In this document: in pieces, positions 1,321 through 2,366 of the stretch
Layout of the letters: every line of letters begins with the position of its first letter
How positions within the stretch are numbered: position 1 is the first letter of the stretch
Source: a virus
Taxonomy: Duplodnaviria; Heunggongvirae; Uroviricota; Caudoviricetes
Virus record (IMG/VR): IMGVR_UViG_2778261504_000021
Span: 1 to 4,260 of that record
Length of the DNA: 4,260 nt
Strand: one strand, 5' to 3'
The notes under the pieces: model-generated
Told to the model about the DNA's origin: nothing
Seen by the model: the letters and a program-made list of their open reading frames with translations, nothing else
Database searches by the model: none
Translations under genes and position numbers: made by a program

Positions 1321-1518
1321 ATGCTGAAACAGCAGGATATGACAGAAACCGCCAGAGTTGTGTTTGATGAATTAAGCGTTACCGAACCGGCGACAGTCGG
1401 GGAGATTGCGCAGAATACTTACCTTTCACGCGAACGCTGCCAGTTAATACTGACCCAGCTTGTTATGGCGGGTCTGGCAGACTATCAGTGCGGTTGTTAC
1501 AGACGCCTTCAGTCCTGA
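1321..1518 (+). CDS. Small (65 aa) putative winged-helix/HTH DNA-binding protein, PapI/FaeA-like pattern
   Basis: AAGGG lies about 10 nt upstream of ATG 1321. The segment VVFDELSVTEPATVGEIAQNTYLSRERCQLILTQLVMAGLA has the spacing of hydrophobic and conserved positions I associate with small PapI/FaeA-type regulators. The stop codon lies inside a terminator hairpin. Function is an inference. Confidence 0.5.
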   Translation: MLKQQDMTETARVVFDELSVTEPATVGEIAQNTYLSRERCQLILTQLVMAGLADYQCGCYRRLQS

Positions 1519-1530
1519 AGGCTTTTTATT
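1505..1530 (+). terminator. Rho-independent terminator after the small ORF
   Basis: Stem GCCTTCA (1505-1511) pairs with TGAAGGC (1516-1522) around a 4-nt loop, followed by TTTTTATTT. The stop codon TGA 1516-1518 is embedded in the stem. Confidence 0.6.
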
Positions 1531-1586
1531 TGTGGTGAATGGGCGGCTGGTGGGGGGGCGACACCTGTCAGTCCTTTGCTTATGTG

Positions 1587-1617
1587 TTGATGATAATTTA
1601 CCTTTTGGGGCTATAAT
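1587..1617 (+). promoter_or_regulatory. Candidate sigma70 promoter for the AraC-family gene
   Basis: Perfect -10 hexamer TATAAT at 1612-1617 with a possible -35 TTGATG at 1587-1592. The 19-bp spacer is longer than optimal. The predicted start would be about 30 nt upstream of ATG 1653. Confidence 0.3.
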
Positions 1618-1652
1618 TGAGCTAACCAATTGCTAATGAAAGTAAAATTATA

Positions 1653-2366
1653 ATGGCTGTTGTCTGTTCAGTTATCATGGTTTGCTCCCCAATTAATATT
1701 TTTCTTGAAAAGGATACGTTGTCACTTAAGCCAGGCTCAGTTGTTCTGGCCACCAAATGCATCAGGGAGCTTTTCCTTATGCATTATGGCAAAGTTAAAA
1801 TTGTCGATATAAGCGAATCCGTCGTAAGTCAATATCTGGAAAGTCAGCATAAGCTGACGAGGACTCGTCTGACTGACATTCCGCTTTACCTGTTGCTGGA
1901 ACCCAACAATCCTGCGTTGGCTGCGGCTTTAATTACCAGCCAGGGATTTTCCGGAGAGGCCACGGATATGTTTCTTATGATGGCCTGCCTGTCTCTGTTT
2001 GAAACAGATGAACGGATGTCATTGTTTTTAAGTGGATGTTTATCCAGCATAAGTGCCAAAGTCAGGGCGATAATTCAGACAGATATATCAGCAAGCTGGA
2101 CGCTTGGTGCGATTGCTCTACAGTTGCATATGAGTGAGAGTTTGTTAAAGACAAAACTGAAAAATGAAGGGGGCATGTTCAGTCGCTTGTTGCTGGAAGA
2201 GCGGATGCGTGTTGCTGTAAATATGTTATGTTCCCGGCATGGATATGGACAGGCTATAGCAGAAAAATGCGGTTATTCAAGCAGGTCCTACTTTATTTCT
2301 GTATTTCACCGCTATTATGGCTTCCCGCCAGACAGATATGTATCCAGGCAAGGGCTTGATTATTGA
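1653..2366 (+). CDS. AraC/XylS-family transcriptional regulator (237 aa), resembling prophage-borne AppY/EnvY/GadX-like regulators
   Basis: The C-terminal ~100 aa (WTLGAIALQLHMSESLLKTKLKNEGGMFSRLLLEERMRVAVNMLCSRHGYGQAIAEKCGYSSRSYFISVFHRYYGFPPDRY) carry the double-HTH signature of the AraC family. The N-terminus MAVVCSV..C......KIVDI resembles, from memory, the N-terminus of E. coli AppY, so the subfamily assignment is tentative. Confidence 0.75.
   Translation: MAVVCSVIMVCSPINIFLEKDTLSLKPGSVVLATKCIRELFLMHYGKVKIVDISESVVSQYLESQHKLTRTRLTDIPLYLLLEPNNPALAAALITSQGFSGEATDMFLMMACLSLFETDERMSLFLSGCLSSISAKVRAIIQTDISASWTLGAIALQLHMSESLLKTKLKNEGGMFSRLLLEERMRVAVNMLCSRHGYGQAIAEKCGYSSRSYFISVFHRYYGFPPDRYVSRQGLDY

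Follow-up and report, generated by a model that had tools for sequence, protein, structure and literature searches.

Positions 1321-2366 of the window, as the whole 4,260-nucleotide stretch of DNA analyzed here is called, carry two putative regulator genes side by side, which raises the question of whether the two form a functional pair. A sequence-only reading of this DNA had described them as a self-contained regulatory cassette of the late region, made up of a PapI/FaeA-like protein with its own terminator, an AraC/XylS regulator with its own TATAAT promoter, and a divergent lipoprotein gene, with targets that were unknown. The genes themselves are present exactly as described, with the ORF of 65 aa at 1321-1518 and an intact AraC/XylS regulator ORF of 237 aa at 1653-2366, both on the plus strand, and a lipoprotein-like ORF on the minus strand (602-1048), divergent from both. 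The late-region setting is also borne out, as the window holds the Q, tRNA, holin, and lysozyme genes of a lambdoid prophage. Nevertheless, the stretch very probably represents two separate units, a psrB cargo insert and a conserved small winged-helix gene, placed in the leader of the late operon after Q and a pR′/tR′-like pair and before the tRNAs and lysis genes, with the lipoprotein as a third cargo gene. Overall, the result is an ordinary one and for the most part known already; minor leads are offered by the small protein and a conserved Chi-containing block.

The larger of the two genes is readily placed in the AraC/XylS family. Its product matches the Pfam profiles HTH_AraC (PF00165, E=2.4e-13, in two stretches) and HTH_18 (PF12833, E=5.8e-10), both above the Pfam gathering scores; it has the C-terminal two-HTH DNA-binding domain that defines the family, and it is matched by the DNA-binding domain of GadX (3mkl) with E=7e-19. 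The identity of the window protein to PatE, YdeO, and AppY amounts to 37%, 31%, and 29%, respectively, with full-length alignment and a common N-terminal VCSVI motif, while the 40% identity to EnvY covers the C-terminal 138 aa only. The NCBIfam profile for YdeO aligns over the full length of the protein at 108.5 bits, compared with an equivalog cut-off of 348, and that for GadX scores 87 bits, compared with 500. PatE (z0321/ECs0287), YdeO, AppY, EnvY, and GadX belong to the same AraC/XylS subfamily and are all tied to acid-stress regulons; PatE, AppY, and EnvY are prophage-borne, like the window gene, and the genomic locations of all five differ from its own. By these alignments the window protein is a related member of the YdeO/AppY/PatE/Psr subfamily and not an orthologue of YdeO, GadX, or AppY.

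Within this subfamily, the closest comparison is with the product of positions 1,905,274-1,905,987 of the E. coli O157:H7 EDL933 genome (CP008957), which is 98.7% identical to the window protein and differs from it at 3 of 237 residues (A103V, H196Y, and A202V, window residue first, with residue 202 lying in the second HTH). The prophage that holds this copy, at the ydfJ site, also carries a PerC/Pch gene and, at its end, three NleG genes. The product of ECs_1087 (psrA) of strain Sakai shows 90.7% identity to the window protein over 237/237 residues, and the same figure of 90.7% is obtained between PsrA and the EDL933 copy, in agreement with the identity published as “90%” for PsrA and PsrB (PMC10877973). 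From the genomic context and the 90% figure, rather than from a locus-tag table, the EDL933 copy can thus be inferred to be z2104 of OI-57, i.e., PsrB; CP-933 or locus-tag labels were not found among the protein-database cluster names. The location of psrA itself is given as z1789 on OI-50/CP-933N in reviews, but no AraC gene was found after Q in Sakai Sp6, Sp7, or Sp10 or in the resequenced CP-933N of EDL933; this conflict is settled by the discovering laboratory, which named psrA as ECs1087 in Sp4 (PMC13502914).

The high full-length identity to both PsrA and PsrB and the position in the late region of a lambdoid prophage, in the same arrangement as in Sp4 and the OI-57 prophage, place the window protein in the Psr family. 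Compared with the PsrB locus of EDL933 (z2104, OI-57), the window gene has the same length of 237 aa, 234 identical residues, and the same promoter region, and it likewise follows Q, the late leader, and the small ORF and precedes tRNA-Ile; the differences are a Q of the PF06530 type in the window as opposed to DUF1133, the extra lipoprotein gene, and another tRNA set. The PsrA locus of Sp4 shares the insert and its flanks and differs by 22 substitutions in the protein, by a frameshift in the small ORF 5′ of psrA, and by a CPBP protease gene in place of the lipoprotein gene after Q. In most of the O157:H7 genomes listed, megablast detects just two copies, of which one has 99.2% DNA identity to the window. 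By these identities, the larger gene is an already known, common allele of PsrB, a studied EHEC prophage regulator. Two of the loci with an identical or near-identical cassette (L003 and L011) carry PerC-family genes, and the latter also NleG effectors. The presence of psrB would mainly flag a prophage as one of the effector/Pch-associated lambdoid group, which has members in about 13% of complete E. coli genomes.

What is said here of the function of PsrA, PsrB, and PatE is drawn from two reviews (PMC10877973, PMC8565820) and a 2026 paper (PMC13502914). Under PsrB, which binds to the promoters of both gadE and hdeA, acid resistance is increased and LEE type III secretion is repressed indirectly (PMC10877973, PMC8565820). 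For PsrA, activation of gadE and yhiF has been reported, together with repression of type III secretion (PMC10877973, PMC13502914). The statement that the targets are unknown does not hold, since effects on gadE, hdeA, and yhiF/LEE have been published for PsrA and PsrB, and the comparison with EHEC prophage regulators that rewire the acid-resistance and virulence regulons of the host was an apt one, the gene being PsrB. Given the 98.7% identity, the targets of the window allele are presumably those of PsrB, gadE and hdeA. Binding to these two promoters would increase GAD and chaperone-based acid resistance, and acting through GadE and YhiF, PsrB would lower LEE type III secretion indirectly, only in strains that carry the LEE.

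The small gene at 1321-1518 encodes a stand-alone protein of the phrog_331 family (E=6e-37) and is the next ORF beyond the late leader. It has homologues in Escherichia, Salmonella, Klebsiella, Citrobacter, Kluyvera, Enterobacter, and Proteus. The AlphaFold (AF2) model, with a mean pLDDT of 92.6, has the H1-strand-H2-H3-β-hairpin topology of a winged helix (helices 9-16, 26-33, and 37-49; strands 53-56 and 59-62). As modeled, the protein is of the DNA-binding winged-helix type, and the winged-helix fold that had been proposed for it from the sequence is present. The affiliation to PapI/FaeA did not stand up: there was no FaeA (PF04703) Pfam match at E≤1, PapI/FaeA structures were absent from the top 50 Foldseek PDB matches, and Foldseek against PDB and BFVD returned nothing but generic winged-helix neighbors of the MarR/IclR/TrmB type (TM 0.76-0.83 to MarR/OhrR/IclR domains, E≥8e-4). 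A phmmer search against PDB sequences gave 0 matches at E≤10 and an NCBIfam search no match, and the Pfam TrmB profile (PF01978) reached E=0.003 and 17.8 bits, below its cut-off of 25.6. The likeness to PapI/FaeA and to TrmB/MarR regulators consists of the three-helix and β-hairpin winged-helix fold and, for PapI, of the small size; the differences are that the protein has no dimerization or ligand domain and belongs to a phage late operon rather than to a fimbrial switch. PADLOC, run on the small protein, the AraC protein, and the lipoprotein, gave at most one weak match at chance level.

It might be argued that one or both genes are non-functional, the small ORF being a chance ORF in the leader or the AraC gene a truncated pseudogene, as a shorter form of 195 aa is given for the AraC protein in many database entries and the small ORF is marked as frameshifted by RefSeq in O157:H7 SS17. 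The small ORF, however, has a median dN/dS of 0.09 and an intact reading frame in 105/108 loci, in addition to its high pLDDT, and the AraC ORF is 237 aa long in 36/37 psr loci, with this form aligning from residue 1, VCSVI motif included, with YdeO, AppY, and PatE. Both the spurious ORF and the pseudogene were rejected by these selection and homology analyses, and such an explanation is scarcely credible.

The surroundings of the small gene show how it is likely to be transcribed. The Q antiterminator gene (141-521, plus strand; PF06530 Phage_antitermQ, E=2e-51; phrog_79) marks the late-operon setting and is followed by a candidate pR′-like late promoter from the promoter scan (1114-1141, plus strand, TTTACA-16-TATGCT), a stretch common to the window and to Sakai Sp4, whose Q type is identical. 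A tR′-like intrinsic terminator at 1176-1197 (plus strand; −6.3 kcal/mol, weak in the window allele) forms the junction between the Q-specific module and a conserved downstream block. Across loci, the Q gene 5′ of the small ORF is of four different types, and a hairpin with a T-run lies some 126-128 nt 5′ of it in 102/107 of them, with more than 10 unrelated stem sequences. A conserved CTTGCT...AGAGTTAT element is a candidate promoter of the small ORF itself, with a poor −10 match that was not called by the scan. The terminator that had been assigned to the small ORF was recovered over its stop codon (1505-1532, plus strand), as a hairpin at 1505-1522 followed by the T-run TTTTTATTTG; it has a stability of −10.5 kcal/mol (z=−3.4, with 0/200 shuffles as stable) and is kept in 84/107 loci, in which the stems vary and the pairing is retained. 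In many enterobacterial lambdoid phages, a conserved winged-helix gene of 63-65 aa, situated between two intrinsic terminators, would be the ORF with which the late transcript begins. Further downstream, four tRNA genes (2395-2704, plus strand; ARAGORN, Rfam) form the right flank of the psr insert, a position that is occupied by ileZ-argN-argO in homologous loci, and Rfam at E≤0.1 found nothing in the window beyond these four tRNAs. The idea that the short pR′-tR′ transcript of the window corresponds to the 66-nt sRNA HnrS of Sp9, Sp10, and Sp12 was unsupported, Sp10 sharing only the tRNA and lysis regions.

In a cassette, the AraC regulator and its small winged-helix neighbor, perhaps with the lipoprotein, would work as one, for example through control of the psr promoter by the small protein or through co-regulation. 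The case for it is built on constancy. The small ORF block lies 5′ of nearly every E. coli psr, as 725 genomes contain at least 80% of 1049-2394 and 726 contain the psr insert; the two genes are separated by a 130-nt spacer that hardly varies across psr loci and includes an invariant 19-nt block; and an imperfect inverted repeat with arms at 1590-1605 and 1639-1654 encloses both the promoter and the start codon of psr. Synteny of this kind would by itself leave a functional link possible. Against it, the same small ORF, spacer, and block are found 5′ of a methyltransferase (MTase) gene in other loci, which implies that these elements are older than psr and not peculiar to it. At the species level, the MTase follows the small ORF in 18/19 informative representative loci, nearly all of them non-E. 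coli, and psr in none; among the 71 informative loci of viral contigs, the next gene is the MTase in 37, psr in 30, and an esterase in 4. The conserved neighbor of the small ORF across genera is thus the MTase, and psr is its neighbor only in some E. coli prophages. In addition, the small ORF and psr have a strong terminator between them, and in Sakai Sp4 and O157:H7 SS17 the small ORF is frameshifted 5′ of psrA, the psr gene that is reported to be functional. The predicted lipoprotein gene (148 aa, phrog_3152, lipobox ...IISGC) was detected in no more than 185 of the 5,426 E. coli genomes and in 3/80 viral loci, and in UTI89 it lies beside the small ORF and the MTase without psr; judging from this distribution, it is cargo in its own right, located after Q and before the late leader and outside any psr module. 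One insertion site, common to these loci through the homology of their flanks, can account for the constant adjacency of the small ORF and psr. The claim of a self-contained cassette was therefore not upheld, and a functional unit of this kind appears improbable; the two “regulators” are better described as positional neighbors, psr having replaced the MTase 3′ of the small ORF.

This reading of two separate units is supported by the boundaries of the insert. Three MTase-type loci (L004, L013, and L070) share positions 1175-1589/1594 with the window and resume at 2380-2393, which delimits a psr insert of about 790 bp (1590-2379, plus strand) consisting of promoter and psrB. It occurs at 1,325 places in the 726 psr-containing genomes among the 5,426 complete E. 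coli genomes. The predicted σ70 promoter of psr (1590-1617, plus strand; ATGATA-16-TATAAT, 10/12 consensus positions) lies right at the left end of this insert. Of the promoter attributed to the AraC gene, the site is indeed present and invariant in 37 psr loci, both psrA-like and psrB-like, but it stands as a consensus match that is not significant alone, the scan having returned 11 promoter-like sites compared with 7.1 ± 2.2 in shuffled sequences. With its own conserved σ70-type promoter, psrB could be expressed in the lysogen despite the upstream terminators, provided that this promoter is used as predicted, and once the prophage is induced, Q-modified RNA polymerase would transcribe it as well.

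Lambdoid phages are known for “morons”, single cargo genes such as bor, lom, and stx that are located in the late region and have their own promoter. The psr insert resembles them in combining a single gene with a promoter-like site, in its sharp breakpoints at ~1590 and ~2380, in its placement between late-operon elements, and in the benefit to the lysogen. It differs from them in that psr has no terminator of its own and is followed by tRNA genes, and in that it replaces the MTase gene and is no pure insertion. In the lineage of the window, psr would have taken the methyltransferase slot.

The usual occupant of this slot appears to be an adenine methyltransferase of the M.EcoGII type (β-class, PF01555). 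The enzyme encoded 3′ of the small ORF elsewhere has 349 aa, with DPPY35 and FxGxG310 in the motif order of the β-class and a PF01555 match; at other small-ORF loci the MTase is 95% identical to the enzyme of phage 1720a-02, which in turn is very similar to M.EcoGII (PMC5778455). The non-specific adenine MTases M.EcoGII and M.EcoGI have no copy in the window, and the likeness at the other loci is established via the 1720a-02 enzyme. This opens another explanation for the small protein, namely a dedicated role as partner or controller of the late M.EcoGII-type MTase, in which it could time or limit the expression of this toxic enzyme or target the enzyme to the DNA of the phage, with the copy in the window being a leftover whose partner was replaced by psr. 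Such a role would account for the fixed spacing, with the MTase starting at +340 to +348 relative to the small ORF in the species-level loci across many genera and in phages such as 1720a-02. It would also fit the finding that M.EcoGII is toxic if constitutively expressed and silent in lysogens (PMC5778455), which makes tight control plausible, and the sole decayed copies of the small ORF seen, in Sp4 and SS17, sit in loci without the MTase. On the other hand, the small ORF is intact in 30/30 psr-type viral loci and in the window, where no MTase is adjacent; a terminator lies between the small ORF and the MTase, so that translational coupling of the two is lacking; the fold is that of a generic winged-helix protein; and synteny alone shows no interaction. 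Taken together, a partnership with the MTase is a possibility to be considered, albeit on balance an unlikely one.

The invariant 19-nt block AATGGGCGGCTGGTGGG.G (1538-1556, plus strand) of the spacer, recognized in the alignment, holds a Chi site at 1546-1553; next to it comes a poly-G tract whose length varies among loci. A Chi site is located 25-31 nt past the stop codon of the small ORF in 101/108 loci, including 18/21 species-level loci, and a second one (GCTGGTGG, 1230-1237, plus strand) lies 5′ of the small ORF, where a Chi site is found within 130 nt upstream in 76/110 loci, mostly of E. coli. A speculative and rather doubtful extension is that the phrog_331 protein, its two bracketing terminators, and the Chi-containing block may constitute a conserved late-operon control unit for the toxic M.EcoGII-type MTase, with psr morons being captured at a Chi-flanked recombination hotspot. 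If true, the small protein could supply the missing regulation or targeting that permits self-hypermethylation of the phage without killing the lysogen. As a side lead, the small winged-helix gene, the MTase, and the Chi-containing element at a mosaic junction offer a testable route to the control of the hypermethylase, and the same junction a testable clue to where late-region cargo is exchanged.

For annotation, the psr gene is routinely labeled just as a “helix-turn-helix domain-containing protein” and is often called with the 195-aa start, the homologous form being that of 237 aa, and the RefSeq name “TrmB family” of its small neighbor rests on sub-threshold evidence.

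The window comes from a lambdoid prophage and consists of its late-regulatory and lysis region, in which a PF06530-type Q antiterminator gene (141-521) is followed by a lipoprotein-like ORF on the minus strand (602-1048), a 65-aa ORF (1321-1518), a 237-aa AraC-family ORF (1653-2366), four tRNA genes (2395-2704) and then, in order, the genes for a P21-type holin, a DUF1327/YdfR protein and a lysozyme, and the beginning of Rz. The window as a whole is a mosaic, each module of which is common on its own, and public records of E. coli or phages include none that spans at least 80% of it. 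The anticodons of the tRNA array are CAT/TTT/TGT/TCC, the array in related loci carrying psr (the prophage AraC/XylS regulator gene, of psrA and psrB types) being ileZ-argN-argO. The second tRNA (2472-2548) has an argN-like body with the anticodon TTT (Lys) instead of TCG and a reduced tRNA score of 44 bits. Between this array and the holin gene lie 290 bp of non-coding DNA, which contain a strong intrinsic terminator (2905-2940, -13.7 kcal/mol, z=-4.5).

The AraC-family gene is identified by sequence comparison as an allele of psrB, with a locus-tag link that we infer, since a near-identical EDL933 copy (1,905,274-1,905,987; 98.7% protein identity, 3 differences) lies in a ydfJ-site prophage with a PerC/Pch gene and three NleG genes at its end, which is the layout expected for OI-57, and since this copy and PsrA share 90.7% identity, in agreement with the published 90% for PsrB and PsrA. 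Consistent with that, most O157:H7 genomes among the matches listed have just two detectable copies of psr, one of which shows 99.2% DNA identity to the window. The window protein itself shows 90.7% identity to ECs_1087 (PsrA) over the full 237-aa ORF, 37% to ECs_0287 (PatE), the regulator in Sp1/OI-8, 31% and 29% to YdeO and AppY of K-12, and 40% to K-12 EnvY in the C-terminal 138 aa only. It contains a two-HTH AraC domain (Pfam) and is spanned in full by the NCBIfam YdeO profile, with a score far under the equivalog cut-off; its family is small and almost exclusively from E. coli in a database of 5.8 billion proteins. Since an N-terminal VCSVI motif is common to PsrB, PatE, YdeO and AppY, the 237-aa start is the homologous one, rather than the often-annotated 195-aa start. 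With this N-terminus and an ORF of 237 aa in 36 of 37 loci, truncation or pseudogenization of the gene is ruled out.

The sequence-only reading was correct in expecting host regulons to be rewired by an AraC regulator borne on a prophage, and its statement that the targets are unknown is superseded, the regulator having already been characterised as PsrB. In reviews, three such regulators are described from EHEC prophages, PatE (z0321, OI-8), PsrA (z1789) and PsrB (z2104, OI-57). All three are reported to switch on GAD/hdeAB acid-resistance genes, with PsrB binding the promoters of gadE and hdeA, and with PsrA and PsrB repressing LEE type III secretion via GadE and YhiF (PMC10877973, PMC8565820). 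It has to be noted that the placement of psrA is in conflict, the discovering (Tree) laboratory giving it as ecs1087 of Sakai Sp4 (PMC13502914) and reviews assigning z1789 to OI-50/CP-933N. No AraC gene follows Q in the resequenced EDL933 CP-933N or in Sakai Sp6, and the conflict may stem from misassembly of a prophage when EDL933 was first sequenced.

The 65-aa ORF is a real gene for a winged-helix protein, which is not PapI-like. It belongs to phrog_331 (E=6e-37), a family of unknown function, with homologues of 63-65 aa in Escherichia, Shigella, Salmonella, Klebsiella, Citrobacter, Kluyvera, Enterobacter, Buttiauxella and Proteus, and in the phages phiP27, SfV, Stx2 phages, mEp460, cdtI and Citrobacter phiNP. 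The family is narrow, as only 61 relatives were found among 1.84 billion cluster representatives. Its median pairwise dN/dS is 0.09, and 105 of 108 copies are intact. The DNA-binding type of fold proposed earlier is borne out by a confident AlphaFold model (pLDDT 92.6), which predicts the topology H1-strand-H2-H3-wing. In structure searches it matches generic winged helices (OhrR/MarR, N-domains of IclR and of O-methyltransferases, and TrmB-like phage proteins), with only the best viral match (7.9e-4) reaching E<1e-3. The proposed likeness to PapI/FaeA was not recovered: no PapI/FaeA structure is among the top 50 structural matches, the Pfam search gave sub-threshold hits only (TrmB, E=0.003) and none to FaeA, and sequence searches of NCBIfam and the PDB were empty.

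The neighbours of the small gene were classified in 21 loci from species-representative genomes and in 80 viral contigs, the latter sample being skewed to the closest relatives of the window. At species level 19 loci are informative; in 18 of them the small ORF is followed by a gene for a 349-aa PF01555 DNA methyltransferase, starting +340 to +348 from the start of the small ORF, and in none of the 19 by psr; the viral contigs have the methyltransferase in 37 cases, psr in 30 (+331 to +335) and an esterase in 4. Four types of Q (two PF06530 subtypes, PF03589 and DUF1133) are found on the 5' side. A functional link between the small ORF and psr could be proposed from the E. coli genomes, in which the small ORF block precedes nearly every psr copy (725 vs 726 genomes), yet this adjacency is equally well explained by a single insertion site spread via conserved flanks, and in Sakai Sp4 and in SS17 the small ORF preceding psrA is frameshifted. 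The pairing is most probably positional rather than functional. The lipoprotein-like gene, located between Q and the late leader, encodes 148 aa (phrog_3152) with zero Pfam, NCBIfam or PADLOC matches; it is carried by only 185 of 5,426 E. coli genomes. One of these is UTI89, where it lies beside the small ORF, the methyltransferase and lysis genes without psr. The combination of two regulators and a divergent lipoprotein, proposed as a self-contained cassette, is an accident of mosaic gene order. The sequence-only reading was accurate in its observation, both ORFs being exactly where it placed them, and partly right in its interpretation.

Three things remain of interest: the small protein itself, which is uncharacterised, the conserved linkage between its gene and that of an M.EcoGII-type methylase, and the junction with Chi. 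The methylase, a beta-class adenine enzyme at a fixed offset after the small ORF in almost all non-psr loci (L004, L013-L032, L113, L114; outside the window), carries DPPY at residue 35 and FxGxG at residue 310, and its identity to the enzyme of phage 1720a-02 is 95%. The paper on M.EcoGII (PMC5778455) terms the phage enzyme very similar to M.EcoGII, which is a non-specific adenine methylase of 349 aa carried by a prophage, silent in lysogens and toxic on expression; the consulted parts make no mention of synteny with a small winged-helix gene.

Loci with the methyltransferase in place of psr align with the window over 1175-1589/1594 and again from 2380-2393, and the psr-specific DNA therefore amounts to ~790 bp, made up of a promoter-like site, the gene and a further 13 nt. 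Among 5,426 complete E. coli genomes, 726 carry this insert (1,325 places), and 595 of the 726 have a copy at least 99% identical to the window. The psr/methyltransferase breakpoint lies ~40 nt past a conserved Chi (GCTGGTGG), one of three in the window (1230-1237, 1546-1553, 4005-4012), all on the late-transcription strand, where shuffles predict 0.12. In 101 of 108 loci, across genera, a Chi follows the stop codon of the small ORF by 25-31 nt, and the copy at 1546-1553 lies within a 19-nt block (1538-1556) unchanged from E. coli to Salmonella and Enterobacter. Over 835 kb of related loci, Chi is twofold denser on the late-transcription strand (0.57 vs 0.27 per kb). A poly-G tract (1553-1560), lying between the Chi block and the psr promoter, differs in length and sequence even where loci are otherwise near-identical, and may therefore be slippage-prone.

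The TATAAT promoter proposed for the AraC gene (ATGATA-16-TATAAT, 1590-1617) matches 10 of 12 consensus positions, which proves little alone, because a scan of the window gives 11 such sites against 7.1 +/- 2.2 in shuffles; the predicted promoter draws its weight from being invariant in 37 related loci and coinciding with the left breakpoint of the psr-specific DNA. The terminator ascribed to the small ORF is real by folding (-10.5 kcal/mol, z=-3.4, 0/200 shuffles as stable) and overlies its stop codon. A hairpin with a T-run ~126-128 nt 5' of the small ORF, present in 102 of 107 loci with more than 10 unrelated stem sequences at a fixed position, behaves like tR' at a Q-specific module boundary, which places the small ORF between terminators within the late transcript. 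In a lysogen psrB would depend on its own promoter, and after induction Q-modified polymerase would read through the entire stretch.

A promoter-like TTTACA-16-TATGCT (1114-1141), common to the window and Sp4, which have the same Q type, precedes the tR'-like terminator, and the two (1114-1197) would yield a ~50-nt transcript 3' of Q, analogous in position to StxS, the pR'-derived sRNA of Stx phages; locus comparison gave no correspondence to HnrS. Also 5' of the small ORF, an element invariant across genera (1259-1296, CTTGCT-N10-AC.AGAG.TAT...GTATGTCAC) could be either an operator or a promoter, the latter weak or dependent on an activator. The window has a direct repeat, CTGGCTTTTTA, at 1247-1257 and 1263-1273, and the element overlaps one of its two copies.
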